Source: an uncultured Anaerolineales bacterium (GTDB lineage: Bacteria; Chloroflexota; Anaerolineae; B4-G1; SLSP01). From it: a stretch of 43,251 nt of DNA. The notes beneath the pieces were generated by a model that did no database searches, was not told where the DNA came from, and was given only the letters and a program-made list of their open reading frames with translations. Of the stretch, positions 7,009 through 43,222 are shown piece by piece. Every line of letters begins with the position of its first letter. Position 1 is the first letter of the stretch. The stretch is from contig CAYLRT010000010.1 of NCBI GenBank assembly GCA_964385885.1, forward strand, positions 1-43,251, written 5' to 3'. Position numbers and translations under genes: made by a program.

Positions 7009-7140
7009 ATTGCAGAAGCAACGGACATCGTGGGGGACGTCGGGAGATTCTGTCGATCGGCAGAGCGTCCTGACGAGTGCGTGACAAGCGCAAAAGATGT
7101 GACCAAGAAGTTACGGAGTTTTCTAAGGAGGAGACGTGCA

Positions 7141-21994: not shown

Positions 21995-22091
21995 TCACCT
22001 CTGCAGAAAAAACTAACCCGAACTACGATCGCATCTTTGACATTCTCACACAAAGAGGGCCGGCGGCAAGGTTACCACCGACCCTCTATGA

Positions 22092-22490
22092 GGTGGAGAT
22101 GGCGGGAATCGAACCCGCGTCCGAAGAATTCGACTGTGAGCATCTACGAGCGTAGTCGGCGATTTCATTTCACGTGGAGGGTCGCTGCCGACCGCGCCAC
22201 ATCCACGCTAGCCGAATCTCTCTTGAGCCAGCCTATCGGCGTCAGCCGGCTTGCACGCATGCATTATGTCGCCTGACTTCGGCACGCATGCGAGATGCCG
22301 AAGGGGCGTGATCGGATTCCCCGATCAGGTTTTTGGGTCAGTCACCTACTGCTTACGCAGCGACGGCGACCGGAGCCCAGTTGTTCGCCATAGTGTTGGC
22401 ATTTTTGGGTTTGCTTCTGGGTTTACGGAGACGAAGCCTCCCCGGCTCGCAGCCCACAATCAGCCTTCCCCGTCGATACCGATCATCCCC
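22092..22490 (-). ncRNA. ssrA: tmRNA (transfer-messenger RNA), tag peptide ANNWAPVAVAA
   Basis: The 5' end GGGGAUGAUCGGUAUCGACGGGG pairs with the 3' end CAUCUCC-ACC, giving a G3:U wobble. The T-arm is GGACGCGGGUUCGAUUCCCGCC. The resume codon GCG is at 22388-22386 and the tag ORF ends with UAA at 22355-22353. Confidence 0.88.
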
Positions 22491-23127: not shown

Positions 23128-24801
23128 CTATTTCCTCGAACGCCAAATGGAGAAGATGAGCCATAGGCCCAACAGGCTGGCAGCAGCGAATCCGGCGATG
23201 ACCAGCGTCGTCGCCAGCCCCCACGGTTGGGCCAGGTTGAAGGCCGGGATGAGCAGGGCCAGCCCGACGATCAATGCAGCCAGCAACACGCTGATCGAGA
23301 TGCGGTTTGCCAGGCCGTCCAGTCGAGCCAGCGCCTGTTCCAGTCCTTTGGGACGGATCGCGACCTCCAGCTCTCCCTGCTCCGCGCGGGTCAGGAGCTG
23401 CGAGCCGACGCGCGGAATAAGGCCAAGCAGTTCCGCCCATTCGCCGACCCCCTTGACCATGGACGGGCCCCACGAGCGTGGAGAGGCCATTTGCCATATG
23501 AACCGCCGCACGTAGGGTTCGGAGACGGCGAATATATCGAAGTCGGGAGCCAGTCTCAGCCCCACGCCCTCCATCATCGCCAGCGTTTTGCCCAGCAGCC
23601 AGTACTCAGAGGGCAAGTGCAGGTGATGGCGGAAGGCGATGGGCATCACCTCTTCCACCACCTCCCGGGCACGGATCTCCCTCAGCGGGAGCCCGTGGTA
23701 CTTGCGCAGCAGCTGGGCGATATCACGCTGCAGCCCAGCCCGGTCCACCCGGCCGGTGGCGGTCCCCATCCGAAGCAACTGCTCCACGATGCCTTCCTCC
23801 TCCAGTCGTACAGAGACGATGTACAGGCGGATTAGGTCGGTTCGTTGGTGCTGGCTCAGATAGCCCACCATCCCAAAATCCATCGCGCCGATGACATGAC
23901 CTGGCATAATCACAAGGTTGCCTGGATGGGGGTCGCCGTGGAAGAAACCGTCCTCTAGCACTTCCTTGATGATGATGCGGGCCGCGTGAAGAGCGACCCG
24001 ATTGCGATCGTATCCCGCCGCGTCCAGCGCCTCGATATCGTCGATCTTGATCCCACGGATGCGCTCCAAGACCAGCACTCGGCGGGTCGTGTAGTTCCAA
24101 TAGACCTTGGGGATGTAGAGATGTTGCTCACCGACGAAGTTGGTTCGGAAGCGATCAGCATTCCGTCCTTCTCGGTAGAAGTCGAGTTCAGCCCGCAGCG
24201 TGCTGGCAAAGTCCTGGGCAATCTCTGGCAGATCGTAGATTTCTCCCAGCGATGTGTGGTCCTGCAGCAGCCGGGCCAGCTCGAATAGGATCTCCAAGTC
24301 GGTCTCGATGGTCGTCTGGATGTTCGGTCGCTGTACTTTGACGACGACCTCTGCGCCGTCGTGGAGGGTGGCCGTGTGCACCTGGGAGAGGGAGGCAGCA
24401 GCGATAGGGACGGTATCGAAGGCAGCGAACAGTTCCTCCGGCGGTGCTCCCAGCTCCGCCTTGATCTGTGCCCGGATCGGCTCCCACGGTTCCGGAGGAA
24501 CGGTGTCCTGTAGTTTGGCGAGTTCGGCGATGTAGGCAGGTGGAATCAAATCGGGTCGGGTGCTGAGGATCTGCCCCAACTTGATGAAGGTGGGGCCCAA
24601 CTCCTCCAGCGCCAGACGCAATCGTTGGGGTGCCCCCAAGGGAGTGCGGCGCCAGCGTCGCAGCAGCCTACGCGGTAGCGCCGAGTACGGCTGCGCTGCC
24701 AAGAGGTCCACAAGTTGCCCAAAACCGTTGCGCCCCAAGACCTCCACGATCTCACGATAGCGCCGAAGATGGCGGGCATTACGGGCCGGCGACCAGGCCA
24801 T
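23128..24801 (-). CDS. ABC1/UbiB-family atypical kinase (paralogue 2), with two C-terminal TM helices
   Basis: Contains LEELGPTFIKLGQILSTRPD, ASLSQVH, VVKVQRP and FHGDPHPGN. It is collinear with the 16324-17988 protein. GAGGTGA lies upstream. Confidence 0.9.
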   Translation of the reverse strand: MAWSPARNARHLRRYREIVEVLGRNGFGQLVDLLAAQPYSALPRRLLRRWRRTPLGAPQRLRLALEELGPTFIKLGQILSTRPDLIPPAYIAELAKLQDTVPPEPWEPIRAQIKAELGAPPEELFAAFDTVPIAAASLSQVHTATLHDGAEVVVKVQRPNIQTTIETDLEILFELARLLQDHTSLGEIYDLPEIAQDFASTLRAELDFYREGRNADRFRTNFVGEQHLYIPKVYWNYTTRRVLVLERIRGIKIDDIEALDAAGYDRNRVALHAARIIIKEVLEDGFFHGDPHPGNLVIMPGHVIGAMDFGMVGYLSQHQRTDLIRLYIVSVRLEEEGIVEQLLRMGTATGRVDRAGLQRDIAQLLRKYHGLPLREIRAREVVEEVMPIAFRHHLHLPSEYWLLGKTLAMMEGVGLRLAPDFDIFAVSEPYVRRFIWQMASPRSWGPSMVKGVGEWAELLGLIPRVGSQLLTRAEQGELEVAIRPKGLEQALARLDGLANRISISVLLAALIVGLALLIPAFNLAQPWGLATTLVIAGFAAASLLGLWLIFSIWRSRK

Positions 24802-24854
24802 AGTCTGTCACCTCGCTGCAGACATTCACGGCATGTTGAGCCGAAGTGAGGACA

Positions 24855-25469
24855 TTACAAACCGAATCCCACGCTGTAGAACAAGAGCGAGAGTAGGGCA
24901 CCGACTGCCACCTGGGCCAGCGTATGCCGGCCGCGCTCCACCTGCGCCCAGCCGACCAAGGGTAGGAGGCCCAGCAACGGCCAGGTTTCCATGCCGTAGA
25001 GAATGAGCCCCACTGCTGCCAGTGCTCCGGCGGTCGCGCCATGGAAACTGATCTGCCAGAAGGGTGTAATGGCCGTCATCAAGGCAGCCTGCACCATCTG
25101 TACCCAGGCCAGCCGACGCAACAGGAATGGGGCATGAATATGCTGGTACAACGCTGCTGTAAGACCGACAAAGCCCAGTGACACCAACAACGGTTTCAGT
25201 CTCTCTCGTCGGCAAGCGTGTTCCAGGTCGACCGCCCATCCCCATCGGCCTAGCAGGATCAGCAAGGTCATCGGGCACACATCGGCCAGCAGCAGGTACG
25301 GGCCTCCCCACAGGAAAGCTTCCCTCCAGGATGTGGTGGCGCGCCAGGCCACACTGAGCACCAACGGGATTGCGATGAGACCGGGGTTGGTAAGGTGGGA
25401 AACGCAGCGGGCGATGAGTTGCCCGTCCACCGCAGCCCGACGGATCCTTGTGGATACGTGCTCAGTCAT
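24855..25469 (-). CDS. Divergent PAP2-like integral membrane protein (lipid phosphate phosphatase superfamily)
   Basis: Multi-TM protein. SFHGATA resembles the PSGH motif, and VERGRHTLAQVAVG resembles SRxxxxxHxxxD but carries Q in place of D. The first motif (KxxxxxxRP) is not recognisable. ATG 25469 overlaps the patatin stop by 8 nt. Confidence 0.55.
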   Translation of the reverse strand: MTEHVSTRIRRAAVDGQLIARCVSHLTNPGLIAIPLVLSVAWRATTSWREAFLWGGPYLLLADVCPMTLLILLGRWGWAVDLEHACRRERLKPLLVSLGFVGLTAALYQHIHAPFLLRRLAWVQMVQAALMTAITPFWQISFHGATAGALAAVGLILYGMETWPLLGLLPLVGWAQVERGRHTLAQVAVGALLSLLFYSVGFGL

Positions 25470-26331
25470 CCTTTGCCTCCTGCAGCAGATCTCGAACGCA
25501 TGGCAACACTTCCCGCGCCGCCTGCTGCCCTGCAGCAATGATCTCAGCAGCATGATGGAATCCGGTCAGCACCGTCACGTCTTGCGGAATACGGGGGAGG
25601 ATGACAACCTCCGGGCGCGCCAGGACCATCCGATGGCGCTGGATCTCTCCCATCATCACCGCCAGCGTGCGGTATAGTACTTCAAAGGTTCCCACCAGCC
25701 CCTTGGGAAGATAGCGGTGACGTCTCAATGTCTGGATCAGTAGAGAGGCCATGCGACCGCTCGCCGTGACGTCGACAGCGATAACCAAGTCCGCTCCCAT
25801 TTGCCGTACTACGTCGGCAGGCAGGTTGTTTAGCACACCTCCGTCCACTAGCGTCTGCTCCCCTCGTTCTACCGGGGCCAGGAAACCGGGCAATGCGATG
25901 GTCGCCCGCACCGCGTCCACCACCTGGCCGTCGCGCAGGACCACCTCCCGGCCACTGTTGAGGTCCACGGCAACCAGCGCCAACGGTACGCGGAGGTCAT
26001 CAAAGGTACGCTCACCCAGGTGGCCTCTCAAGTAGTCTTTTACCTTCTCGCCCTCGAAAAGGGCTCGATGGGAAAGTGGTGGCTCGGCCAGGGCCAGGAG
26101 ATGGCGCCGGCTGCCCATACGCTGAGCTTCCTGTTCCATAAAACCAGGGCTCAGCCCGGCGGCATACAGTGCGGCAATGAGGCCACCCATGCTCGTGCCG
26201 GCCAGGCAGTGAATCGGGACGCCCTCCTGCTCCAGGACCTTCAACACGCCGATGTGCGCCAGTCCCCGGGCACCACCGCCGCTAAGCGCCAGTCCAATCC
26301 TGCGAGTCGATACCCTCAGCAGTGTATCCAT
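25462..26331 (-). CDS. Patatin-like phospholipase
   Basis: Contains the oxyanion motif GLALSGGGARG, the nucleophile elbow GTSMGG, and the catalytic Asp motif VDGGVLNNLP. Confidence 0.9.
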   Translation of the reverse strand: MDTLLRVSTRRIGLALSGGGARGLAHIGVLKVLEQEGVPIHCLAGTSMGGLIAALYAAGLSPGFMEQEAQRMGSRRHLLALAEPPLSHRALFEGEKVKDYLRGHLGERTFDDLRVPLALVAVDLNSGREVVLRDGQVVDAVRATIALPGFLAPVERGEQTLVDGGVLNNLPADVVRQMGADLVIAVDVTASGRMASLLIQTLRRHRYLPKGLVGTFEVLYRTLAVMMGEIQRHRMVLARPEVVILPRIPQDVTVLTGFHHAAEIIAAGQQAAREVLPCVRDLLQEAKDD

Positions 26332-26335
26332 TGTC

Positions 26336-27061
26336 TCACTCCGGGGTGCTTCCCTCGTCTGTGACCGCTTCGCGCCTCCTGTACTGCCGCCAGAACCGGA
26401 TGGCTTCCTGGAGATGTTCCTCGTCGAAGTCGGGCCAGCAGGTTGGCGTACTCCAGAACACCGCGCCTGCGGTCTGCCAGAGCAGGAAATTGCTCAGCCG
26501 TTGCTCTCCGCCAGTGCGTATCACCAGGTCTGGATCCGGCATCCCTGCAGTATACAGAAAACGCTCGAGGACCGTTCCGGTCACTCCTTCTGGATCGACC
26601 TCTCCCTGTTGCACTGCGCGCGCGAGGGAGCGAACAGCGTCAGTGATCTCCGATCGCCCCCCGTAGTTGATCGCCAGGTTGAGAACCATCCGCTCACCAT
26701 CCTGCGTCGCACGCATCGCTTGCTCCAACGCGTTCCGTACTTCGAGAGGCAGATCCTCACGCCGACCAATAACGTTCAACCGCACGGCGTTTCGGCGCAA
26801 CTCAGGCACCTCCCTTTCAGCGTACTCGCGGCACAGCCGCATTAGGAAGTCCACCTCGTTGCGCGGGCGTTTCCAGTTGTCAACAGAGAAGGTATAAAGG
26901 GTAAGCACGCGAACGCCCAGTTGCCTGCACATCCGAACCACGTGGCGTGCGGCCTGTACACCGGCGGCATGGCCAGCGGTGCGGGGCAGCCCCCGCGCCT
27001 GCGCCCAGCGTCCGTTGCCGTCCATGATCATAGCGACATGGTCGGGTACTTCAGAATCCAT
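26336..27061 (-). CDS. Isoprenyl transferase (cis-prenyltransferase, UppS paralogue)
   Basis: Contains HVAMIMDGNGRWA, LYTFSVDNWKRP and IRTGGEQRLSNFLLWQ. The start is ATG 27061. The 366-aa track ORF has a spurious N-terminal extension. Confidence 0.87.
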   Translation of the reverse strand: MDSEVPDHVAMIMDGNGRWAQARGLPRTAGHAAGVQAARHVVRMCRQLGVRVLTLYTFSVDNWKRPRNEVDFLMRLCREYAEREVPELRRNAVRLNVIGRREDLPLEVRNALEQAMRATQDGERMVLNLAINYGGRSEITDAVRSLARAVQQGEVDPEGVTGTVLERFLYTAGMPDPDLVIRTGGEQRLSNFLLWQTAGAVFWSTPTCWPDFDEEHLQEAIRFWRQYRRREAVTDEGSTPE

Positions 27062-27084
27062 CACGTCTCTAGTGCACCCTTTCT

Positions 27085-27369
27085 TTACCCTCTGGGTAGA
27101 TGATATGCCACCATTAACACAACAACCGCCAGTACCCATCCCACGGCGATGGAGGTGAGCGCCACGTCTCTGCAGACGACCAGCAAGGCGATGCCCCGCA
27201 AGACGAGCAGCACTGCCGCAGCCAGCAACAGCGAGAGGCCGCGCCGGGTCCTGTCCGTGAGCCCCTCGACCGCGTCCCGCAGGCAGGTCCAATCCGCGCG
27301 GCTGAGCCATACGACCAGGAGGGCCACGACCAGGGCCACCACGATCCACCATAACAGCAACCAGCCCAT
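27085..27369 (-). CDS. Hypothetical 94-aa membrane protein with three TM helices
   Basis: ATG 27369 (MGWLLLWWIVV...) lies behind GGAGGA. It has three hydrophobic helices and ends 23 nt upstream of the UppS paralogue. Confidence 0.55.
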   Translation of the reverse strand: MGWLLLWWIVVALVVALLVVWLSRADWTCLRDAVEGLTDRTRRGLSLLLAAAVLLVLRGIALLVVCRDVALTSIAVGWVLAVVVLMVAYHLPRG

Positions 27370-27695
27370 TTGCCTGTCCTCCTCTTCCCCCATTGGCGGG
27401 TGCCGGTGCCCGGCGCGTCGCCTGTCCACTTGGCACTTCACCGGATCCTAAGTTTCAGCCAGCTTGAGACGGAAAGGACACAACCGGGTCGCAAGGAGGA
27501 CGAGCACCCATAGCACCAGCACACCCGTCTCCCATTCCCCACCTATTTATCCCGGCGCGGGAGCGGTCGGCGACGGTGAAGACGCATACTGTGTGGTATG
27601 ACTCGCCGTCTGCAGCGCCTACCAGCGGCGCCACGGAGATAACCACACCTCACTCTATCGCGGAACCAATCCGTAGTGATAGCAATGCGCGCTGG

Positions 27696-28010
27696 CTATA
27701 GCTCCTCTTCGTCCGACATCTGCCCGGAATCGAAGTCGGCAAATGCCCCCAGGATGTCCACGTCGCTCAGCGGAAAGTGGCGGGCAATCACAGGGAGCAA
27801 GTCGTTCATCAACGTAGCACGCTCCTGCCGTGCCAACCCCTGCAAGGCCATACCCAGGTACTGCTCCACCAAGCGACTCAGGAAGGCTACCCGCTCCTCA
27901 ACAGGCAGACGGACGATCCATTCCCGCATCGCCTCGCCAGCCAGATCGAGTGCGTCCTGGGGGCTCAGGCGGCGGACAAACTGCCGCGCCAGCGCGGCCT
28001 TCAGGTTCAT
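27696..28010 (-). CDS. Hypothetical helical protein with an acidic C-terminal tail (...DFDSGQMSDEEEL)
   Basis: ATG 28010 (MNLKAALARQF...) is preceded by GAGGTG. GTG 28109 is an alternative start. I do not recognise a family. Confidence 0.5.
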   Translation of the reverse strand: MNLKAALARQFVRRLSPQDALDLAGEAMREWIVRLPVEERVAFLSRLVEQYLGMALQGLARQERATLMNDLLPVIARHFPLSDVDILGAFADFDSGQMSDEEEL

Positions 28011-28148
28011 CTCTTCACCTCGATCATCGCGTTTCTCCTGCTTCGGAATATCGTTGAGCGCGGCATCTCTTACCCGGTGGGGCAGGGCAGCGCCTGTTTG
28101 GTCCGGCACACACAGGCGCTCCCCGCCCTCCCGTCCCCTGTGACGCGA

Positions 28149-28469
28149 TCAGTCTGCTTGCTTGGTCGTCCTCTTCCTGCCTGCCAGTTCCTCAACCCGG
28201 GCTGCCAGCTCGTCTATTTTGCGGTTCAATTCCTCGATATCCTGGCGAGACACCGGGATCATACGGTCGAGTTCCTGACGCATAAGCTTGCGCAGTTCCT
28301 CCTGCTCCTCCTCACCGCGCGCCACCAGACGATCGACCACGCTCGGGGCCTCTTCCGGCCTGACCTCTCCTTCCTCGACCAGTCTATCTACGAACCGGGT
28401 CACCTTATCGCGTGTCAGGTTGAACACACCGAGACCCAGCAGCATGCTTCTTTCTATCCACTTACCCAT
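28149..28469 (-). CDS. Phasin-family / PHA-granule-associated-like coiled-coil protein
   Basis: Contains LLGLGVFNLTRDKVTRFVDRLVEEGEV and a C-terminal heptad region (DIEELNRKIDELAARVEELA). GGAGGTG lies upstream. Confidence 0.65.
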   Translation of the reverse strand: MGKWIERSMLLGLGVFNLTRDKVTRFVDRLVEEGEVRPEEAPSVVDRLVARGEEEQEELRKLMRQELDRMIPVSRQDIEELNRKIDELAARVEELAGRKRTTKQAD

Positions 28470-28545
28470 TCTTACACCTCCACCTCAAACTCGTAAGGCC
28501 AACTCGATTTCCTTCAGACACTTCCGCCATCACTTAAGGTGTGCC

Positions 28546-29817
28546 TCACCTCCCTTCTTCCACGGGGTAGGATACTCCCTTACCCCACGCATCTCGGGCA
28601 CTTGCCATCCAGACGCCAAGAACGACTAAGGCCAGCAGTGAGAAGACCCACCGGAAGCCAAGCAAGTCCGCCAGGCCACCCATCAGAGGTAGGGGCAATG
28701 TGGAGACGGTGCTGCTCAGCAACAACTGAGTGGAGATCACCCGCCCGCGCATCTCGTCCGGCGAGCGCTCCTGCACCACCGTCCGGGCTGGGATGATGAT
28801 CAGCGCGAACGAGGTCCCCAGCCCCAGCGAAAGTAGCAGGAATAGCAGGATGTATGGGCCCTCCAGGGCTCGGAGGGCAGGCAGCAGCGCCAGCCCCCCG
28901 CCCAGGAGCAGCAGGCCGATACTGACCCATACCTCCTCCTTCAGACGGCGTCCACTCCATCCGATCAGCCACACACCGAGACCGAAGCCCAGGCCGCCGG
29001 GCACCGCCAGGTAGGCGACGTGATCCACCCGGACACCCCAGACACGGGCTGCCAGCCCAGGCACGAGCGTCGTCAGCGCGAGGGAGAGAGCGGACGCGAG
29101 CACAAGGCAGCCAATGGCGCAGCGTACCGGTGGGCTGTCGGCCACAAACCGCCACCCCGTCCGCAGGTCGTCGCAGAACGACCCCCACGTGCGGGACACT
29201 CCTGGATCGCTCCTCTCGCTCAGCCGGGCTGGCAGGCGTGCACACATCCAGGCGGATATCCCGAAGAGAGGAATGGCTCCCAGCCCGGCTGCCGGTACAC
29301 CGCCCAGGTGCAGCAGCAGCGGGGCGACGACCAGGGTTCCGACCCCCATAGCCCCCAGGCTCGCCACCTGGAAGATCGAATTGGCTGCCAGAAGCCGCTC
29401 CGACGGCACGAGATGGGGGAAGATGGCCCCTTCCGCCGAGGTGGTGAACTGAGATGTGGCTGAAAGGAGGAAGTTGCCGGCGTACACCGCGCTCAAGAGC
29501 AACGAGACGCTGTCCAGCCAGTGTGTGGCAGCCGCGAAACCGGCGGCGATGAGCAGGCGCAGCAAGTTGCTGACCACCAGGACACGGCGTCGATCGTACC
29601 GGTCCACTACCACCCCGGCCAACATCCCGAACACAACGCCCGGGAGGGTAGAAGAAAAGATCATCAATCCCATCTGAGCGCTGGAGTGTGTCCTTTCCTC
29701 GACCAACGTCATCGAGGCAAGGTACACGGCATAGGTCGCCGTCAGCGCTGTGAACTGAGCCACGCTGATGCGGCGCAGGAGCATGTTCCTGGCAATGGAG
29801 AGAGTGCGGCTGTCCAT
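28546..29817 (-). CDS. MFS transporter
   Basis: Roughly 12 predicted TM helices, with the motif GMLAGVVVDRYDRRRVL after TM2. ATG 29817 lies behind GGAGG. Confidence 0.85.
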   Translation of the reverse strand: MDSRTLSIARNMLLRRISVAQFTALTATYAVYLASMTLVEERTHSSAQMGLMIFSSTLPGVVFGMLAGVVVDRYDRRRVLVVSNLLRLLIAAGFAAATHWLDSVSLLLSAVYAGNFLLSATSQFTTSAEGAIFPHLVPSERLLAANSIFQVASLGAMGVGTLVVAPLLLHLGGVPAAGLGAIPLFGISAWMCARLPARLSERSDPGVSRTWGSFCDDLRTGWRFVADSPPVRCAIGCLVLASALSLALTTLVPGLAARVWGVRVDHVAYLAVPGGLGFGLGVWLIGWSGRRLKEEVWVSIGLLLLGGGLALLPALRALEGPYILLFLLLSLGLGTSFALIIIPARTVVQERSPDEMRGRVISTQLLLSSTVSTLPLPLMGGLADLLGFRWVFSLLALVVLGVWMASARDAWGKGVSYPVEEGR

Positions 29818-29880
29818 CCTCAGACCTCCACGCCTGTGTGGGTCCAAGGGATGGCAAGCTCTTGCGCCAATGCGTTTGGG

Positions 29881-31368
29881 TCAGGGCGTTTCTTGGCCAT
29901 TGCCCCCCAGGTATTCCTGTCTCCAGATGGGATCCAACATCCGCGCAAGCGCCTCATCGTATGCGGTCATTCCCCTGCGGTAGACGGGGTCCATCATCGC
30001 CTGCAACGCGGCCTTGTCCTCCGGGTCTGGCTCGGTTGTCTCCAGGATGCGCCGAAAATCGGCGTGATGGTCGCGGATGATACAGGGCATTAGCCAGTTC
30101 CCCGTTTCCTCTGGCTTGTCTGCCGTGAAACCGTAGCCATGTTGCCACTCGCGGATGGCGCGGAAGAACGGCTCCTCCAGGACGTCATTCAACGTTCCAC
30201 CCCGCCGGTAAACCTCGTTGATGTTGACGGGTGAGTAAGGGACGAAGACACAAGGCATCACTTTCCCATTCCAGTCGATGTAGAGGTAACCACCCTGGCG
30301 CCCAGCCGAGATGCACCCATCCGAACAGGTACCCAGGTTCCAAAAGTCAGGCAGGAAGTACTTTCTTTCGCGCACCACCTGCCAGGTCCGTCGCCACATC
30401 CAGAGCCTCTGCTCCGGTGTGGGGAGCAGGTCGAGCGTGAAGCCTCGCCCGATGGGCATGTATTGGAAGATCCAACCGTAGACAGCCCCCTGCTCCTCGA
30501 AGAAGAAGTCCAAGAACTCGTCGGAGAGGATCTCCTCGCAGTTCTCACGCGTGGCGGTGAGGGAGATACCGAAGGGCACGCCGACCTGGCGCAGGTTGGC
30601 CATAGCCTTGAGGACACGCTGGAAGACGCCTTTGCCACGCCGGGCGTCGGTGCGCTCTTCCCATCCCTCTACCGAGATAGCCGGGGTCAGGTTGCCGACT
30701 TCCGCCATACGAGCGGCCATCTGCTCATCGATCAGTGTGCCGTTGGTGTACATCAGGAAGAAGGCGTCCTGATGCTCGGCCGCCGCATCCAGCACGCCCT
30801 TGCCGTGCGACTGGTAAGCCAGCGGCTCGCCGCCGGAGATGACGATGAAGCCGGCCCCCCACAACGTCTGGGCCTCGGTGATGATGCGATCAAAGACCTC
30901 CCAATCCAGTTTCTCACTGTCGTTGCCGGAACTGGCATAGCACCCCTTGCAGCGCAGGTTGCAGAGTTTGCCCGGTGAGATGGTCAGGAAGCCAGGCGGG
31001 CCATAACCTCCATGCTCCAGACGAAAGCGCTCGAGCGCGGCACTACGCTCCTCACGCAGGAAAGCGTTCACGACCAGGCCACGCAGGAGCCCGCGCACGA
31101 CGGCATCGGAGACGTGACCTCGGGCCAGCGCACGGTCGACGGAATGCACCATTGCCTGTACAATGTATGCCTTGTCCTGAGTGACGCGCGGCGGGCGACG
31201 CCCGTTGGCTTGCTGGGGTTCCTCCAGGCGCTGGCTGATGCGCCGGTCGACGTAGTTCACCAGCATACGCCGGACCGGCTCGTGGCGCACCGCGGCAGCG
31301 GTGACGTTGGCGAATGTCCTCGTCTGCCCGATAGATGCGGCCGTGTGAACGATATTTTCCAGTTTCAT
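29881..31368 (-). CDS. Radical SAM enzyme, 495 aa, with a long N-terminal extension and one auxiliary Cys cluster
   Basis: Contains CNLRCKGC (30940-30963), ISGGEPL, and C-terminal Cys residues C-x3-C...C...C (30082-30327). ATG 31368 lies 6 nt after GGGAGGTG. Confidence 0.9.
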   Translation of the reverse strand: MKLENIVHTAASIGQTRTFANVTAAAVRHEPVRRMLVNYVDRRISQRLEEPQQANGRRPPRVTQDKAYIVQAMVHSVDRALARGHVSDAVVRGLLRGLVVNAFLREERSAALERFRLEHGGYGPPGFLTISPGKLCNLRCKGCYASSGNDSEKLDWEVFDRIITEAQTLWGAGFIVISGGEPLAYQSHGKGVLDAAAEHQDAFFLMYTNGTLIDEQMAARMAEVGNLTPAISVEGWEERTDARRGKGVFQRVLKAMANLRQVGVPFGISLTATRENCEEILSDEFLDFFFEEQGAVYGWIFQYMPIGRGFTLDLLPTPEQRLWMWRRTWQVVRERKYFLPDFWNLGTCSDGCISAGRQGGYLYIDWNGKVMPCVFVPYSPVNINEVYRRGGTLNDVLEEPFFRAIREWQHGYGFTADKPEETGNWLMPCIIRDHHADFRRILETTEPDPEDKAALQAMMDPVYRRGMTAYDEALARMLDPIWRQEYLGGNGQETP

Positions 31369-31396
31369 GATTTTCACCTCCCATTTGCTCTCAGCA

Positions 31397-32137
31397 TCAT
31401 CGGATGTCCGTCATCGGCAGTAGGGGCGGACGTCGCAGCAGAAATCGGCTCGCCGCATTGGCGGCCGAACGGGCGACCACACGGTGCCATCCTTCGCCGG
31501 CACGCCGTGGTGAGGCGTAGACAACGAGGTCGCGGTCGAAGCGCACCGGCGCGATGCGGCTCACCCGCAGCGAGAGATCGGTATCTTCACCGGAGTACCA
31601 GTCCACCGGGAAGCCACCAGCCTCCCAGAACACGCTTCCACGCACGGCGAAGTTGCTCCCCCACCAGAGACTGCGCCGGACACGGTTACTGGCCCAGAGG
31701 ATCCAAGTGACTGGGTGGCGCAGCCAGAACCGTTCGATCGGCCGCCCGTCAGACCAGTAGACCGGACCGTAGACCGCCCCCAGCGTGGGGTCGGCCTGGA
31801 AGTGGGCAGCGATGCGGGCCAACCAGAATGGCGGCACGATGGTATCGGCATCAGTGGAGGCGATGACTTCCCCTCGCGCTGCCTCGAAGCCGGCCTGGCG
31901 GGCCCGGGCCACGCCCTTTCGTGGCTCGATCACTACCCGAGCCCCGCGCCGACGTGCAATCTCTGCCGTTCGATCGGTCGATCCGTTGTCCACGACGATG
32001 ATCTCGGACAGGTCGGCTGGGTACGTCTGGCGGGCCAGAGCCGCCAAACAACGGCCCAGGTACTTCTCCTCATTGTACGCCGGGATGACCACGGAGATGT
32101 TGATCTTTCCCGGGGATCCAGACACAGTTCGCTTCAT
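31397..32137 (-). CDS. GT2 glycosyltransferase (soluble, 246 aa)
   Basis: Contains ISVVIPAYNEEKYL, VVDNGSTDRT, STDADT and a GEDTDL-like motif. GGGAGGTGG lies upstream. The start forms an ATGA overlap with the DegV stop codon. Confidence 0.85.
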   Translation of the reverse strand: MKRTVSGSPGKINISVVIPAYNEEKYLGRCLAALARQTYPADLSEIIVVDNGSTDRTAEIARRRGARVVIEPRKGVARARQAGFEAARGEVIASTDADTIVPPFWLARIAAHFQADPTLGAVYGPVYWSDGRPIERFWLRHPVTWILWASNRVRRSLWWGSNFAVRGSVFWEAGGFPVDWYSGEDTDLSLRVSRIAPVRFDRDLVVYASPRRAGEGWHRVVARSAANAASRFLLRRPPLLPMTDIR

Positions 32138-33012
32138 GGCAACAAGCCACCTCCCTCTGCCGCATACAAAGCCACACCAACCGTGCCAGGACCAATGTGC
32201 GTGGCGATGGAGGGACTGAACTCGACAACGGACAACTCTCGGCAATCAAAGTGATCAGCCAGATAGTGGCGAATGCGCTGCGCTTCCCCGAGGGCCTGGG
32301 CGTGGACGATGGCGGCATGAATCGGACGCCCCTCCGCACGCTCCGCCACAATCTCCAGCATCCGCTGCTTCGCACGGCGGGCGGTACGTGCCTTCTCCAG
32401 GACGTCGATGCGCCCATCGCGGAAGTAGAGGATTGGCTTGATCTTGAGAATCGACCCTACCAAGGCAGCGGCTCCGCCGATCCGCCCGCCCTTGAATAGG
32501 TACTCCAGCGTGTCCACAACGAAAACGGTCAACAAGCGCGAGGCGAGACTTTCAATCGTTTGGGCCACCTGGGCAGCCGTCTGGCCTTCTGCGATGGCCT
32601 GCGTGGCAGCGGAGACCAGGAGCACCAGGCCACAGGACGTAATGCGCGAATCCACCACGTAGATCTGCGGCGGATCTTGCATCTCACTCAGGAGGGCCTG
32701 GCGTGCGGTGAGCGCGGAGGTGACTGTCCCGCTGATGCCCGAAGAGATGTGGATGGAAATGATGCTGTCCGCCTCCTGGCTAAGACGGCGATACAGTTGC
32801 AGAAAGTTGCCTGCTGAGGGCTGCGACGTCGTAGGGAGCGTGGGGGCCGACTCCAAAAGCCGATAGAAGATGTCCGTATCCAGGTCCACTCCGTCCCGGA
32901 ATGTCCTTTCGCCGAAGTGGACGTAAAGGGGAACGATGTGCACGCCGTGCTGCCGAGCCCACTCTGACGGCAGGTAGGCCGTGCTATCGGTGACCAGCGC
33001 GATCTTAGACAT
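32134..33012 (-). CDS. DegV-family fatty-acid-binding protein (FakB-like)
   Basis: Contains IALVTDSTAYLP, TTSQPS and the typical DegV length and layout. GAGGAG lies upstream. Confidence 0.92.
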   Translation of the reverse strand: MSKIALVTDSTAYLPSEWARQHGVHIVPLYVHFGERTFRDGVDLDTDIFYRLLESAPTLPTTSQPSAGNFLQLYRRLSQEADSIISIHISSGISGTVTSALTARQALLSEMQDPPQIYVVDSRITSCGLVLLVSAATQAIAEGQTAAQVAQTIESLASRLLTVFVVDTLEYLFKGGRIGGAAALVGSILKIKPILYFRDGRIDVLEKARTARRAKQRMLEIVAERAEGRPIHAAIVHAQALGEAQRIRHYLADHFDCRELSVVEFSPSIATHIGPGTVGVALYAAEGGGLLP

Positions 33013-33076
33013 AGGATCTCCTCATGAGAAATACGATAGAAACAAGAAAAACGAAAAAATTAGGCAAAGAAAAGAT

Positions 33077-33781
33077 TCAGGCCTCAAGGACCCGCATCAC
33101 CTCCCGGGTAAAATCGGACAATCGCCGCAAGTTCTCTGGACTCAGGCGGGAAAACAGTTGCTGATAGCGGCCCACCTGGGAGAGCAACAGGTTGACCAAC
33201 CGTCGATTGGCGCGCTCGGCGAAGGACAGGCCCACCGCTAACCCTCCCAAAGCAGCTAGCCCGGCCTCTTCTGGGAGTCCTAGAGAGCGCAATCTGTCGC
33301 TCAGGCCGAATGCGGAGGCATCCTCTCGCAACTGCTGCAGGCTGAGGATGATGGCAGTGACCATCTCTGCGGCGTACAATAGCGGTGACTGGCGTTCCGG
33401 CAGGCGGGCCAGGAGATCCTTGAGCAGCTCCTGGTAATCCCCCCCTTTCCCTGCCTCCAGGTCCTCTAGGATCCGCGCCTTGACTACCTTCCACTGTGCC
33501 AGATCACTCGCTCCGCTGGCCAGTTCAGCGAATAAGGCGCGCGCCTTAGGTGTAGGGCGGAAGACAATGCTCGAACGTCCGGCACCCCGTCCCTTTCCCC
33601 GCAGGACGTATTCGGACTGTACCAGTCCTTGCTCCTCCAGGAGCCGCAGCATGTCGTAAGCGGTGATCTTGCTGACCCCCAGTCGTTCTGCAACAGCGGT
33701 GTAATGCAGGGGCTCTCTGGCCTCCTGGTACAGGTCCAAGAATTGACTCAAGAATGCCTTCTGCCGCCCGGTCAGCTTCAT
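33077..33781 (-). CDS. Transcriptional regulator with a DtxR-like winged-HTH N-domain and an unrecognised helical C-domain without metal ligands
   Basis: LTGRQKAFLSQFLDLY...YTAVAERLGVSKITAYDMLRLLEEQGLV matches the DtxR/MntR HTH pattern. The C-terminal 150 aa contain no His or Cys. Confidence 0.7.
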   Translation of the reverse strand: MKLTGRQKAFLSQFLDLYQEAREPLHYTAVAERLGVSKITAYDMLRLLEEQGLVQSEYVLRGKGRGAGRSSIVFRPTPKARALFAELASGASDLAQWKVVKARILEDLEAGKGGDYQELLKDLLARLPERQSPLLYAAEMVTAIILSLQQLREDASAFGLSDRLRSLGLPEEAGLAALGGLAVGLSFAERANRRLVNLLLSQVGRYQQLFSRLSPENLRRLSDFTREVMRVLEA

Positions 33782-33819
33782 ATTTCCCCCCAGATTTCGG
33801 CTCTGAAAAAGACAAATAT

Positions 33820-33848
33820 ATTATACCGTGAATTCCCCATTGTGTCAA
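33820..33848 (-). promoter_or_regulatory. Full-consensus sigma-70 promoter TTGACA-N17-TATAAT driving the wHTH-DegV-GT2-rSAM-MFS genes
   Basis: TATAAT is the complement of 33820-33825 and TTGACA is the complement of 33843-33848, with an exact 17-nt spacer. The spacer contains the near-palindrome GTGAATTCCC. Confidence 0.6.
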
Positions 33849-33940
33849 ACCTACAGGCGCATCCCCTCCCCCGCTCAGACGCTTCTCCATTGGACCAAAG
33901 ACACTGAGGGACAAGAGTGGCTCCCCCAAAGGGCCATAGG

Positions 33941-33946
33941 TATAAT
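33941..33946 (+). promoter_or_regulatory. TATAAT box 6 nt upstream of the metallopeptidase ATG (leaderless candidate)
   Basis: Exact TATAAT. ATG 33953 has no SD. Confidence 0.35.
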
Positions 33947-33952
33947 GAGCTC

Positions 33953-34330
33953 ATGACAGTCGATGAAGCACGTGCCCGTTTCGAACGCATAGTCGAGGAG
34001 GCCATCCGCGCGCTGCCCGACGCGTTCCTGGAGAAACTCGACAACGTCGATATCGTCGTCGAGGATTGGCCCGACCCTGCCACCCTACGCAGGGCCGGGG
34101 TGCAACGCCCCTCAGACCTCCTGGGATTCTACCAGGGCGTGCCACAGACCCGACGCACACGCGCCTACAGCCTCGTCTTGCCCGACAAAATCAGCATCTA
34201 CCGCTTCCCCATCGAGATGCGGGCACGGGACAGCCAACACCTCCATGCTCTGATCCTTCAGGTCATCAAGCACGAGATCGCCCATCACTTTGGTATCGAC
34301 GATGCCAGGCTTCACGAGCTTGGGCTGTGA
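33953..34330 (+). CDS. Small zincin-like metallopeptidase family protein (DUF1025-type)
   Basis: Contains VVEDWP...LGFYQG... and the HExxH motif in VIKHEIAHHFG. Confidence 0.8.
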   Translation: MTVDEARARFERIVEEAIRALPDAFLEKLDNVDIVVEDWPDPATLRRAGVQRPSDLLGFYQGVPQTRRTRAYSLVLPDKISIYRFPIEMRARDSQHLHALILQVIKHEIAHHFGIDDARLHELGL

Positions 34331-39170: not shown

Positions 39171-39986
39171 CTAAACGATTAGACCAACCAACAAACTGGC
39201 CAGAACCCCGGCCCACAGCAGGCTGTCCAAACGATCGAACATACCGCCGTGACCAGGGATCAAAGCACCTGTATCCTTCACACCCACTTCCCGCTTGATC
39301 ATGGAAACCAGGAAGTCTCCTCCGGGGCAGAGCAAGCTCACCAGAAACCCCAGGCCCAATCCTGGTGCTAGCGCCAGGGAAGGCACATGCACCAAACTGG
39401 CCCCCAATGCCCCCAGCCCCCCTCCCAAGAGGGTTCCGGCGAGCACCTGAGCCAGGTATCCCTCCCAGCTCTTGCCAGGGCTGATCCGGGGGGCTATCTT
39501 GTGACGACCCCATCGGCGGCCCACGAAGTAAGCAGCAGAGTCCCCCACCCACACGATGAGACAGGTCAGGAACGTCCACCACAGCCCATCGGGCGCCCGC
39601 CTCAGATGGATCAACGCTCGCCCTCCCAGCCCAAGATAGGAGCTCCCTGCCAACATCAGAGCCCAATGCTCAACCGGCAAAGAACCTTCGCCATCTCGTT
39701 GGCTACGCACCAGGGCGGGGAAGGCACCGACCACCATAAACAATACCATTGGCACCCACGGATCCCCAGCAGGCCATAGCTCCCCGATCTCCCAGGCTAT
39801 TATAAGCGCCATTACCAGCCACGTGTGAAGTTCATACCCCCGGCGTGCCAACATTTGTACATATTCGTACCCAGCAAGGACCGTTGCGAGCCCGACCAGA
39901 GCTTCATAGGGCCATCCTCCAAGGTAGAGGATCACGAGCACGATGGGGAGCAGGACAACAGCACTGATAACCCTAGTCTTGAGCAA
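39171..39986 (-). CDS. cdsA: Phosphatidate cytidylyltransferase
   Basis: Contains SWEGY and the CdsA signature GDFLVSMIKREVGVKDTGALIPGHGGMFDRLDS. TTG 39986 gives MLKTRVISAVVLLP, similar to known CdsA N-termini. AGGAG lies 9 nt upstream. Confidence 0.9.
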   Translation of the reverse strand: MLKTRVISAVVLLPIVLVILYLGGWPYEALVGLATVLAGYEYVQMLARRGYELHTWLVMALIIAWEIGELWPAGDPWVPMVLFMVVGAFPALVRSQRDGEGSLPVEHWALMLAGSSYLGLGGRALIHLRRAPDGLWWTFLTCLIVWVGDSAAYFVGRRWGRHKIAPRISPGKSWEGYLAQVLAGTLLGGGLGALGASLVHVPSLALAPGLGLGFLVSLLCPGGDFLVSMIKREVGVKDTGALIPGHGGMFDRLDSLLWAGVLASLLVGLIV

Positions 39987-40325
39987 TGGTGACAACTCCT
40001 ACGCGGGGTGCATACCCATTCACATCATACTCTGATCATCAAGCGGGCCATACCCACTCACGACAGGCCACCGTCGCTGGGAACCCAACACCTGACAGGA
40101 CCAACCCTGGTCGACACTGATGACGACCCAACTCCCGAGACAATGACGGGCCAAAGACGCTCCACACGACACAAAGGCACACACCCGAAGATGCCCCGTC
40201 AGTAGCCCTATCAGTCAATACCACTCCCGGATATGGTACGCAGCAACACCGGCTCAGGAGAGGAATGGTTTTTCCATGTGAACTCACAGAGGAATATGTG
40301 CAGGCCAGGCAGTCAAACACTTACA

Positions 40326-41069
40326 TTAAGAACGGTCACCAGCCTGCGTCAGCCCACCAAATCTCCGCTCCCTTTGGCTATAGGCCTGCAACGCCCGGTA
40401 GAACTCTGCCTCATCAAAATCTGGCCAATAAACTCGCGCGATATAATACTCCGCATACGCGGCCTGCCAAAGCATGAAATTGCTGATCCGAAACTCACCA
40501 CTCGTTCGAATCACCAGATCGACGTCAGGCAAGCCTGCCGTATAAAGATGAGCGTCAATGACGTCCGCAGTTACCTCCGCGGGCGGAATACGCTCCTCAA
40601 TGATCCTCCGGACCGCTCTCACGATTTCCTGACGTCCCCCATAATTGAAGGCAATATTCATGATCAACCGATCGTTGTTGCGCGTCAGTTCTACAGCGGC
40701 CTGGATCTTCGCCTTGAGGGTATCTGGAAGGGGTGCAGGATCCCCAATGTGCCTCAATTGTACACCGCTTTTGTGCAGTTCGTCAACCTCTTTGTCCAGC
40801 CCCTCGTAAAGCAACTGAAGCAATCCCTGTACCTCTTCCTCTGGACGAGACCAATTCTCGGTTGAGAAAGCGTAAAGCGTCAGGATAGGCACACCGAACT
40901 CTACAGCGGCATGCACCACACGACGCAGGTTCTCGACGCCTGCGCGATGCCCGGCGAGACGCGGCAGGCCACGCGCCTGCGCCCACCGACCATTGCCATC
41001 CATGATGACCCCGACATGCGTGGGTATATTGGACAACGGAGGATACTCGCTTAGATCTTGCTCTGCCAT
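40326..41069 (-). CDS. uppS: Undecaprenyl-diphosphate synthase (housekeeping copy)
   Basis: Contains HVGVIMDGNGRWA, LYAFSTENWSRP, IRTSGEFRISNFMLWQ and the C-terminal RERRFGG. It sits in the frr-uppS-cdsA synteny block. Confidence 0.9.
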   Translation of the reverse strand: MAEQDLSEYPPLSNIPTHVGVIMDGNGRWAQARGLPRLAGHRAGVENLRRVVHAAVEFGVPILTLYAFSTENWSRPEEEVQGLLQLLYEGLDKEVDELHKSGVQLRHIGDPAPLPDTLKAKIQAAVELTRNNDRLIMNIAFNYGGRQEIVRAVRRIIEERIPPAEVTADVIDAHLYTAGLPDVDLVIRTSGEFRISNFMLWQAAYAEYYIARVYWPDFDEAEFYRALQAYSQRERRFGGLTQAGDRS

Positions 41070-41260
41070 TGATATAGCTACACCTGATCCCCGGAATTCT
41101 GAAGGCACTGCACGGAGATGGGAGAGACTTCATACCACGGTAAAGGGTACATCACCGATGGAAGCAAGAGAGCTCAAAACAATAGACCGCGTCCCCAAGA
41201 TGCCGCATCTACCCTCCCGCCCGCGCGGCATCGAACAAAGAGGAGAATGCCGACCTCTGC

Positions 41261-41818
41261 CTATACCTGCATGATATCCTGTTCTTTCAGTTTGCCAATC
41301 TCTTCGACCTTGGCCACGTACTTATCCGTCAGTTCCTGCAACTGATCCTGACCACGCTTAAGATCATCCTCCGAGATCAACGACTCACTCTCGTACTCCC
41401 GCATATCGGCAAGCACGTCCCGGCGGATATTGCGCAGTGCCACTTTGCTCTCCTCAATCCGTCGACGTACGAGCTTGACCATCTCCCGGCGTCTCTCCTC
41501 CGTCAGACGGGGGATAGGGATGCGGATAATCCGCCCATCGTTACTGGGGTTCAGCCCCAGATCGGCCTGCAAAATGGCCCGCTGGATATCACCGAGCGAA
41601 GAGGGATCATAAGGGCGCACGACCAGGAGGTTTGGCTCAGGCGCGGAGATCACGGCCAACTGATTGAGGGGCGTAGGCGTCCCGTAGTACTCCACCATGA
41701 CCCGCTCAACCAACGCTGGGGATGCTCGACCCGTACGCACTCCTCTGAGATCGACTTCGAGCGCTTGCACAGTCTTGTCCATTCGGGTCTCGGCGTCTTT
41801 CATCAGGTCCTTGATCAT
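41261..41818 (-). CDS. frr: Ribosome recycling factor
   Basis: 185 aa from ATG 41818, behind GGAGGAGG. The typical RRF sequence runs throughout. Confidence 0.93.
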   Translation of the reverse strand: MIKDLMKDAETRMDKTVQALEVDLRGVRTGRASPALVERVMVEYYGTPTPLNQLAVISAPEPNLLVVRPYDPSSLGDIQRAILQADLGLNPSNDGRIIRIPIPRLTEERRREMVKLVRRRIEESKVALRNIRRDVLADMREYESESLISEDDLKRGQDQLQELTDKYVAKVEEIGKLKEQDIMQV

Positions 41819-41866
41819 CTCAACCTCCTCCGACAAAACAGTGCACCATAACCACAGGCACGACCC

Positions 41867-42580
41867 TCAGTCACTGATCAGTGTACCCACCGGCTCGCCC
41901 CGCACAAGCCGTTCAAGGCTGTCTTTGTCCCACAGATTCAGCACCACGATCGGCACATGGTTATCCATACAGAGTGTGATGGCGGTCGAATCCATCACCT
42001 GGACGCCCAGGTTCAACGCATCCAGATAGGTCATCCGGTCAAACCGCCTGGCATCGGCATGTTTTTGTGGATCCTTGTCATACACACCATCCACCTTCGT
42101 CGCCTTGACCAATAGATCCGCGTTGATCTCGGCGGCCCGTAGGGCGGCTGCTGTATCCGTCGTGAAGTAAGGGCTTCCCGTCCCAGCGCCAAAGACCACC
42201 ACGCGGCCCTTTTCCAGATGTCGGATCGCCCGCAGGCGGATGTAAGGCTCCGCAATCGCTCGCATTTCGATGGCCGTCTGCACTCTAGTGATCACACCAA
42301 GGCGCTCCAATGCATCGGCCAGCGCCAATGCGTTCATCACTGTTGCCAACATGCCAATCTGATCTGCGCGGGCACGATCCATGCCATGGGCCATTCCGTC
42401 CGCACCACGCCACAGGTTGCCGGCCCCTATGACTACCCCCACTTCGATCTCCTGAGCGTGCACCGCGGCAATCGTGGTTGCCACCGCCTCGGCACGCTCG
42501 GGACTGATGCCAAATCCCCCGGGGTTCGAGAGAGACTCACCGCCAACCTTAATGATGATACGCTTGTACGAAGGCTGCAC
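41867..42580 (-). CDS. pyrH: UMP kinase
   Basis: Contains [33 protein letters not shown] and VDGVYDKDP. Confidence 0.95.
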
Positions 42581-42599
42581 AGCTGGAACCTTTCCAGGG

Positions 42600-42631
42600 A
42601 CAAAAAGCCTGGAGGACTAGTCCTCCAGGCT
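42600..42631 (-). terminator. Intrinsic terminator/attenuator: a 13-bp perfect palindrome spanning the tsf stop codon, followed by a T5 run
   Basis: AGCCTGGAGGACTAGTCCTCCAGGCT at 42606-42631, then TTTTTG on the minus strand. Confidence 0.6.
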
Positions 42632-43222
42632 TTCACCCAACTGATAGCGAGTGAATCGTCGGATGACGATGTTCTCGCCAGTCTTGGCAATCATCTGCTT
42701 CAGCAGTTCCTCTACCGTCAGCGAGTCATCCCGGATGAAATCCTGCTCGAGCAGACAGGCCTGCTTGAAGAATTTCTCCAGTCGCCCTTCGACGATGCGA
42801 TCCACAACACGCTCCGGCTTGCCCTCTTCCAGTGCCTGAGCGCGATAGATCTCCTTCTCACGAGCCACAACGTCTTCGGGGACATCATCTCGGGTCAGAT
42901 AGAGTGGAGACATCGCCGCAATCTGCATCGCGATATCGTTCACGAAGGTCCTGAACTCCTCCGTTCGGGCCACAAAATCAGTCTCGCAGTTCACCTCCAC
43001 GAGGACACCAATCCGTCCGCCGCCATGTACGTAAGCGTGGATCAGCCCTTCCTGGGCCGTTCGGTCCATACGCTTGGCTGCCTGGGCCAGTCCCTTCTCC
43101 CGCAGGTAGTCCACGGCCTTCTCGAAATCACCACCGGTGGCCTCGAGCGCCTTCTTACAATCCAGAATACCAGCCGAAGTAGCCTCTCGCAGCTCTTTCA
43201 CCTTCGCTGCTGTGATCGTCAT
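42617..43222 (-). CDS. tsf: Elongation factor Ts (short form)
   Basis: Contains an N-terminal UBA-like region ([20 protein letters not shown]) and the EF-Ts core. GGAGGAGAG lies upstream. Confidence 0.93.

Follow-up and report, generated by a model that had tools for sequence, protein, structure and literature searches.

Mss, the membrane-spanning lipid synthase, is a bacterial radical S-adenosylmethionine (SAM) enzyme described in 2022 (Sahonero-Canavesi et al., PMC13159169). Its experimentally validated representatives, Tmari_0825 of T. maritima and WP_129545148.1 of Thermoanaerobacter ethanolicus, cleave SAM reductively and couple two fatty-acyl tails at their omega or omega-1 carbons, which yields membrane-spanning diabolic or iso-diabolic acid lipids (PMC13159169). 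The validated mss genes are under growth-phase regulation (PMC13159169). Here we compare with Mss a 495-aa radical SAM protein of an uncultured Anaerolineales bacterium (contig CAYLRT010000010.1, assembly GCA_964385885.1; the 43,251 nucleotides analysed are referred to as the window). Its gene (29881-31368, minus strand) lies in a run of genes for a winged helix-turn-helix (wHTH) regulator, a DegV protein, a family 2 glycosyltransferase (GT2), the radical SAM protein and a major facilitator superfamily (MFS) transporter, which a first-pass annotation had taken for an operon without characterised counterpart. Such a counterpart exists for its central enzyme: we conclude from the sequence comparisons that the window protein belongs to the Mss superfamily, in which it represents a distinct, highly conserved subfamily. 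The locus is, at somewhat better than even chance, a regulated membrane-lipid remodelling cluster centred on an Mss-type acyl-tail-coupling enzyme.

The link to Mss runs through a second clade of proteins (~450-490 aa, 35-45% identity to the window protein), which was recovered when 1.8 billion representatives were searched exhaustively with HMMER. Alignments of its members with the window protein span residue ~90-120 through the C-terminus. Cluster look-ups place them in Bacillota, Ca. Humimicrobiaceae, Spirochaetota, Caldisericia, Synergistales and Syntrophobacterales, and Mss homologues have been reported for most of these source groups (PMC13159169, PMC11868695). One member, WP_040330614.1 of Clostridium ihumii, is named as 'Mss homologue' in the supplementary tables of PMC13274423; in BLASTP it is 31% identical to the window protein (E 2e-68, residues 91-493). 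The published homology thresholds for Mss (at least 30% identity and E values of at most 1e-30 to 1e-50) refer to the validated enzymes, to which the C. ihumii protein provides an indirect link. Profile-profile comparison of the window family with the second clade gives a probability of 100% (E 1.6e-108, 375 columns). Six cysteines are invariant in the window clade and in seven second-clade members, and the motifs GGEP, YTNGT, RRG, DFWN, GC, PCxF and NxxxPCxxxD are invariant in both clades.

The window protein resembles the published Mss homologues in length (~460-500 aa), in architecture, in the same six invariant cysteines and in an unusual distribution over anaerobe-rich phyla. Its identity to Bacillota-type homologues is 30-38%, whereas its own subfamily remains at least 50% identical across phyla and is set apart by a divergent N-terminal region of ~100 residues and by small insertions. 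Of the second-clade members compared, the C. ihumii protein is the sole one with an individual listing as Mss homologue. Proteins from Thermotoga or Thermoanaerobacter were obtained neither by searches seeded with a Eubacteriales locus and the Mss-homologue clade nor by cluster look-ups, and a plasmid tblastn search for the validated Mss returned only unrelated homologues from Enterobacteriaceae and Methanosphaera. Functional equivalence with the validated Mss proteins, to which the window protein is linked through homologues, is therefore presumptive. A Clostridiales protein of the window subfamily, MDH7511329.1 from a metagenome-assembled genome (MAG), is not among the entries listed in the Bacillota Mss table, an absence that carries no information, the table being restricted to genomes in which Ger occurs as well.

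A 459-aa radical SAM protein is encoded on the Escherichia albertii plasmid NZ_CP117576.1 (2254-3633), and homologues occur on IncF-type and other plasmids of Enterobacteriaceae, including NZ_CP077819.1 of Klebsiella pneumoniae. The enterobacterial protein is 36% identical to residues 118-454 of the window protein and is annotated merely as 'radical SAM protein'; its neighbours (a replication initiator, a hypothetical protein and a helix-turn-helix regulator) are uninformative on function. Two Methanosphaera records match the window protein at 31%.

The window protein matches the radical SAM domain PF04055 (1.1e-22) and, marginally, SPASM (3e-4), and is soluble, lacking transmembrane segments. 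Its family is large (4673 matches at E<=1e-10), and full-length members from Anaerolineae and other Chloroflexota to Armatimonadota, Acidobacteriota and Desulfobacterales are 55-84% identical. The core motif CX3CX2C (C136-X3-C140-X2-C143) is invariant in 19/19 family members, and beyond the core the family alignment keeps only three more invariant cysteines, C352, C373 and C429. Two copies of the family, with one gene between them, occur in a Calditrichaceae MAG (L077:4574-8428); their identities to the window protein are 44% and 52%, and they may form an Mss-type pair of differing specificities.

Radical SAM chemistry that couples two lipid tails is likewise known from the archaeal tetraether synthase Tes/GDGT-MAS (MJ0619, PDB 7TOL/7TOM), in which an auxiliary Fe-S cluster has been proposed to hold the first lipid radical (PMC13459092). 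Three [4Fe-4S] cofactors are seen in the Tes/GDGT-MAS crystal structure, whereas the window family conserves cysteines for one auxiliary cluster only, namely the three outside the core. Membership of the Tes/GDGT-MAS family itself was rejected: the family profile matches 7tol only marginally (E 0.03) and over the radical SAM core alone, and the structure is outside the top 50 Foldseek matches.

A three-step radical mechanism has been proposed for Tes and postulated for Mss (PMC13459092), and one radical SAM cluster together with one three-cysteine auxiliary site, as found here, fits this mechanism. The window protein would perform the same C-C coupling of acyl chains as Mss, or a closely related one. 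A 5'-deoxyadenosyl radical would take a hydrogen from the chain terminus, the lipid radical would then be parked on the auxiliary cluster, and a second hydrogen abstraction would permit C-C bond formation. By analogy with Tes, we propose that the single three-cysteine auxiliary Fe-S cluster of the window protein holds the first lipid radical.

By sequence and by fold, the best matches of the window protein are SPASM/twitch maturases (SuiB, SkfB, anSME, MftC), with which it shares a core plus a C-terminal cysteine-bearing extension; it differs from them in having neither a peptide-recognition domain nor a precursor gene and only three extra conserved cysteines. SkfB is the closest solved relative by sequence (2.5e-10). 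In the AlphaFold2 model (pLDDT 82) a six-helix N-terminal domain precedes the radical SAM barrel, which carries a short cysteine-bearing extension and is followed by C-terminal helices. Foldseek places the model nearest to SuiB, SkfB and anSME at a query-normalised TM-score of ~0.47 and 16-20% identity, and the N- and C-terminal helices are unique in comparison with these matches. Residues 1-118 are predicted to form six helices and no strand, and this all-helical domain would seem unlike a peptide-recognition element.

We rejected assignment to a maturase of ribosomally synthesised and post-translationally modified peptides: in addition to the all-helical N-terminus, the gaps of -4, 28, 63 and 64 nt between the five genes are too small for a precursor gene and hold no precursor open reading frame (ORF), as the first-pass annotation had maintained. 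The small conserved neighbours are a phasin-like protein and a conserved protein termed c11, both ~100 aa or longer and free of cysteine. The mycofactocin system was rejected likewise. The window protein exceeds no NCBIfam family cut-off, its best match being MftC (83.5 bits, cut-off 265); GT2 scores 91.8 against a cut-off of 280 for MftF, and MftA, MftB, MftD and MftE are missing among the window ORFs. Anti-phage defence was also rejected, since PADLOC gave only pVip at 42 bits for the radical SAM core and, for the patatin domain, a phospholipase effector at 58 bits.

The five genes are tightly packed on the minus strand, and their boundaries and junctions agree with the first-pass annotation, as do their domain classes in Pfam and NCBIfam profile searches. 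The wHTH gene (33077-33781, 234 aa) is separated by 64 nt from the DegV gene (32134-33012, 292 aa). The latter overlaps the GT2 gene (31397-32137, 246 aa) in an ATGA at 32134-32137, within the common sequence ...CCATGAAG...; since both genes contain this sequence, the DegV stop codon TGA overlaps the ATG of GT2. A spacing of 28 nt follows, with the ribosome-binding site GGGAGGTGA before the ATG of the radical SAM gene. The MFS gene (28546-29817, 423 aa from the ATG) starts 63 nt further on at an ATG preceded by GGAGG, or after 33 nt at an alternative upstream TTG (29847). Contrary to the first-pass annotation the co-directional unit does not end here, and the tight run continues with the genes for the phasin-like protein (28149-28469, minus strand, 106 aa; gap 76 nt) and for c11 (27696-28109, minus strand; gap 39 nt). 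Further downstream, after a longer gap, the same strand carries genes for an UppS paralogue (26336-27061, 241 aa), a patatin-like phospholipase (25462-26331, 289 aa) and an ABC1/UbiB-type atypical kinase (23128-24801, 557 aa).

Ahead of the wHTH gene lies a sigma-70-type TTGACA-N17-TATAAT sequence (33820-33848, minus strand), which is the sole perfect match in the window, as annotated initially; shuffled sequences give an expectation of 0.01. Its hexamers are kept 5' of the orthologous regulator gene in four related loci while the sequence farther upstream diverges, the -35 hexamer being invariant and the -10 hexamer conserved in L001, L002 and L009 and reading CACAAT in L006. This pattern is more than a chance match would produce, and we accept the sequence as a real promoter. 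The T-rich spacer between the wHTH and DegV genes (33013-33094, minus strand) includes a match to a terminator-like hairpin (33094-33078) that overlaps the wHTH stop codon. L001 and L002 conserve the spacer sequence, L005 and L006 a part of it, and the spacer may represent an attenuator or an internal promoter that divides the regulator from the structural genes. No riboswitch or other known RNA was detected at E<=1 in 26900-34000.

The regulator is matched by Pfam in its N-terminal wHTH only (HTH_IclR 8e-7, TrmB, Fe_dep_repress 4e-5), and a single-sequence structure model is confident for this domain only, the model of the C-terminal domain being unreliable. Its assignment to the DtxR/MntR metal-dependent repressors was rejected, as the helix-turn-helix alone matches and remains below cut-off (Fe_dep_repress 24.2 against 26; MntR 19.6 against 153). 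The C-terminal domain lacks cysteine and histidine, as noted in the first-pass annotation, and has no conserved metal-ligand set; the protein contains no cysteine and a single histidine, within the helix-turn-helix region, and its family alignment shows no conserved cysteine. The regulator may sense a non-metal ligand, as suggested initially. The wHTH gene directly adjoins the radical SAM gene in L007, L011, L003, L023 and L024.

For insight into the wider context we surveyed 80 loci from species-representative genomes, screened with hidden Markov models built from the neighbour clusters; neighbours are genes within 5 kb of the radical SAM gene, and counts for Chloroflexota refer to 56 entries (55 loci and the window). 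DegV is a neighbour in 30/56 Chloroflexota entries, patatin in 29, wHTH in 28, the UppS paralogue in 24, the phasin-like protein in 23, GT2 in 19 (and in 5/25 other loci), c11 in 14, ABC1 in 10, a glycosyltransferase resembling monogalactosyldiacylglycerol or diglucosyl-diacylglycerol synthases likewise in 10, and MFS in 7. At least one lipid-type neighbour occurs in 46/80 loci, in more than 25 distinct gene orders, and the persistence of a linkage through so many arrangements is the usual signature of functional coupling. The recurrent partners of the radical SAM gene are wHTH, DegV, patatin, the phasin-like protein, the UppS paralogue, ABC1 kinases and a NadE-like protein, while GT2 and MFS are variable add-ons. 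Together with CMAS-type methyltransferases, the diacylglycerol-type glycosyltransferases and UbiA-family proteins (8 loci), these neighbours bear out the earlier proposal of an acyl- or membrane-lipid rather than a peptide context.

Lipid contexts recur outside Chloroflexota, in L032, L072, L077 and L062, in different arrangements. The Desulfobacterales locus L032 has the order rSAM-UppS-x-patatin (rSAM denoting the radical SAM gene), an Aminicenantes locus rSAM-phasin-ABC1-patatin and a Calditrichaceae locus phasin-ABC1-x-patatin-rSAM-x-rSAM. In L046, L047, L051, L053, L055 and L061 (Bellilinea, Levilinea and related MAGs) each genome holds a paralogous second radical SAM copy in a different cluster, ordered P-type ATPase, NadE-like, LuxR response regulator, two small unknowns, rSAM, patatin, CMAS, DegV; the CMAS-type methyltransferase (cyclopropane-fatty-acid-synthase-like, PF02353) is present in L051, L053 and L061 only. 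A 78%-identical orthologue (L089/L090) has FabH and acetyl-CoA carboxylase genes upstream of it; on its other side come genes for NadE-like, MFS, wHTH, phasin-like and DUF1232 proteins, a geranylgeranyl-reductase-family protein, a family 4 glycosyltransferase and patatin, with neither DegV nor GT2 beside it.

The window DegV is a full-length domain (PF02645 2.9e-86, 290 bits; TIGR00762 317 bits, cut-off 99.7), resembling the FakB/DegV proteins of the fatty acid kinase system in its high scores to solved structures, the nearest being B. subtilis DegV (3fys, 9.6e-55) and the FakB1 structures. It differs in remaining below the FakB1 equivalog cut-off (192 against 350), and the window lacks FakA. 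DegV occurs near the radical SAM gene in several gene orders; a full-text literature search (DegV, radical SAM and patatin) found no linkage of DegV to a radical SAM lipid enzyme. The patatin-like phospholipase is RssA-like (PF01734 1.4e-35; RssA 147 bits), and patatin genes lie near the radical SAM gene also in Desulfobacterales, Aminicenantes and Calditrichaceae loci. GT2 (PF00535 2.1e-33) is soluble, without hydrophobic segment, and its NCBIfam scores are all far below the cut-offs (EpsD 97/370, MftF 92/280). The MFS protein is DHA3/EntS/Mef-like (MFS_1 3.3e-26; TIGR00900 156 bits, cut-off 320), shows weak similarity to LplT-type domains, and adjoins the radical SAM region in close relatives only.

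The phasin-like protein is small and amphipathic (matches to PF05597, TIGR01837 and NF047773), and its gene occurs near the radical SAM gene also in Aminicenantes, KSB1 and Latescibacterota loci. The c11 protein has no Pfam match; tblastn finds it in ~18 related loci, and most of the gene orders with c11 have it next to the phasin-like gene. In L072, L077, L062 and the type-A loci of Anaerolineae, the ABC1/UbiB-type kinase (PF03109 2.7e-76) and the phasin-like protein recur together near the radical SAM gene. Other phyla have an ABC1 gene directly 3' of the phasin-like gene near the radical SAM gene, and the window contains a second, 52% identical ABC1/UbiB-type kinase paralogue at 16324-17988, on the same strand and ~5 kb from the first.

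The membrane-lipid remodelling reading builds on the observed family homology and conserved cysteines and on a linkage to lipid genes that recurs in changing gene orders; substrate, product and the roles of all accessory genes are inferred. The surrounding genes would form a loose, lineage-variable support set rather than a linear pathway. The wHTH protein would be a dedicated regulator, expressed from a strong conserved promoter, and plausibly confers growth-phase control as seen for the validated mss genes, whose regulation fits the presence of such a regulator. DegV, which binds fatty acids, and patatin, which releases them, would serve the supply or recycling of acyl chains, while hydrophobic material would be handled by the ABC1 kinases and by the phasin-like protein with its partner c11. 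GT2 and MFS would be clade-specific add-ons, for the head group and for transport or flipping, respectively.

Several observations weigh against this interpretation. The link to Mss runs via a published homologue at 31% identity and not via the two validated enzymes, and the window clade, as a separate and very conserved subfamily, could have a different substrate or regiochemistry. The subfamily also occurs in an aerobe, Fervidibacter sacchari, whereas Mss has been reported from anaerobes only; the F. sacchari isolation paper contains no lipid data. In 25/80 loci the radical SAM gene has none of the neighbours listed above, and its homologues in the clade of Clostridium and Synergistales stand alone among unrelated genes, in contrast to the regulated lipid-gene neighbourhood of the window. 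Much of the linkage in Anaerolineae could be inherited synteny. In several phyla, moreover, the tightest partner of the radical SAM gene is the NadE-like PP-loop enzyme, which has no evident part in lipid coupling.

The first-pass annotation had regarded the five genes as one dedicated pathway, in which the radical SAM enzyme functionalises a DegV-bound acyl lipid that GT2 glycosylates and MFS exports, giving a new tailored glycolipid. The tight packing and translational coupling agree with this, as does the same five-gene order in L001 and L002 (~81% nucleotide identity over the wHTH-rSAM segment), and GT2 adjoins the radical SAM gene in 24/81 loci or entries, including the Calditrichaceae L077 and L054. 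Yet wHTH, DegV, GT2 and MFS occur together in 3/80 loci only (L001, L002 and L005, all close relatives); the five-gene set does not form a conserved unit. In addition, MFS is rare, the 78%-identical orthologue dispenses with adjacent DegV and GT2, GT2 and MFS fit no specific family, and the radical SAM family is far older and wider than the five-gene arrangement. A fixed sequence of modification, glycosylation and export is on these grounds unlikely.

Similarly, we consider it improbable that the substrate is an isoprenoid, i.e., a polyprenyl chain made by the UppS paralogue, attached by a UbiA-type enzyme, saturated by a geranylgeranyl-reductase-type enzyme and cross-linked or modified by the radical SAM protein. 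The window UppS paralogue (PF01255 1.7e-81) is 48% identical to the housekeeping UppS (40326-41108), which lies within a tsf-pyrH-frr-uppS-cdsA array (39171-43222). The UppS proteins linked to the radical SAM gene in other loci are nearer to the window paralogue in 13/16 cases, including that of the Desulfobacterales L032, and form an orthologous group of their own, distinct from the housekeeping gene. In many Anaerolineae loci the paralogue follows the radical SAM gene by 0-50 nt, in the Desulfobacterales locus by 328 nt; UbiA-family genes in 8 loci, the geranylgeranyl-reductase-family gene in L089 and the archaeal analogue Tes, which couples isoprenoid tails, point in the same direction. DegV, patatin and CMAS, by contrast, indicate fatty acids, and UbiA and the geranylgeranyl reductase are confined to a minority of loci. 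The usual role of cis-prenyl carriers is in glycan assembly, and this would also account for the neighbouring glycosyltransferases, with no part for the radical SAM protein.

The NadE-like gene (PF02540, PP-loop) raises the question of a non-lipid housekeeping role, for instance in cofactor or nucleotide metabolism, with the lipid neighbours in Anaerolineae representing inherited synteny without functional meaning. It overlaps the stop codon of the radical SAM gene in Chloroflexota, Armatimonadota and Acidobacteriota loci and lies 0.2-1.5 kb from it in Calditrichaceae and Sumerlaeota loci; the loci without lipid neighbours and a very high conservation typical of housekeeping enzymes would agree with such a role. 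Arguments against it are the homology to Mss, a family with two members of demonstrated lipid activity, and a DegV/patatin linkage that outlasts many rearrangements and recurs in the independent paralogue cluster. Moreover, in L001 and L002 the NadE-like gene (~890 nt) lies between the radical SAM and MFS genes (L001:4125-5015, L002:4042-4932), while the window lacks it in a clean ~890-nt indel at 29841-29876 and has kept the radical SAM gene. We therefore regard a housekeeping role as improbable.

There is also a small chance that the window subfamily is more than a further Mss and provides the catalytic core for a separate regulated system that handles chains away from the bilayer; bacteria would then have a second route, with another mechanism, to cross-linked or bipolar lipids. 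In this system the chains would be released by patatin and presented to the radical SAM protein by DegV, or polyprenyl chains would come from the UppS paralogue; the product would be processed by the phasin-like protein, ABC1 and, in most lineages, the NadE-like adenylating enzyme. If true, this route would be present in Anaerolineae, which abound in sediments, and would extend even to aerobes.

The window protein is most unlikely to be a SPASM/twitch maturase of a peptide or cofactor (mycofactocin-like, GT2 being the MftF analogue) or a component of an anti-phage system (viperin-like radical SAM protein with a patatin effector), for although MftC (83 bits) is the best NCBIfam match of the radical SAM protein, MftF (92 bits) the second of GT2, and the leading Foldseek and PADLOC matches are of these types, the scores are far below family cut-offs, MftA, MftB, MftD and MftE, room for a precursor and a peptide-recognition-like N-terminus are missing, patatin is nearest to RssA, and the locus has a core-genome character, with synteny extending across a class.

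Earlier descriptions of Mss do not include a lipid-gene neighbourhood such as that seen in Anaerolineae. For the palaeoclimate proxies that rest on branched tetraether and diabolic-acid lipids, the identity of the bacterial producers in anoxic settings is an unsolved question. Anaerolineae have been suspected, on correlative grounds, of branched tetraether lipid production (PMC12383918, PMC11868695), and the locus places an Mss-family enzyme in this dominant sediment and digester group, together with a dedicated regulator and recurrent fatty-acid-handling partners, which have so far not been considered in work on Mss. The main value of the finding is that, in Anaerolineae, the Mss family gains a set of accessory and regulatory genes that can be tested. 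Should the window protein be an ordinary Mss, the annotation of thousands of 'radical SAM protein' entries would still be improved.

The window has further features. The gap between the c11 and UppS paralogue genes (27062-27695) measures ~630 nt and contains an ORF of uncertain coding status (27085-27441, 118 aa, with hydrophobic stretches); neither this nor a further candidate ORF at 24826-25311 has a Pfam match or a homologue in the related loci. A tmRNA gene is located at 22091-22490 on the minus strand (Rfam RF00023, 156 bits) and encodes the tag peptide ANTMANNWAPVAVAA. On the plus strand, positions 7030-9021 encode a 663-aa protein with a full-length match to DUF4914 (1042 bits), which is very conserved, has no assigned function and adjoins a molybdopterin oxidoreductase gene.

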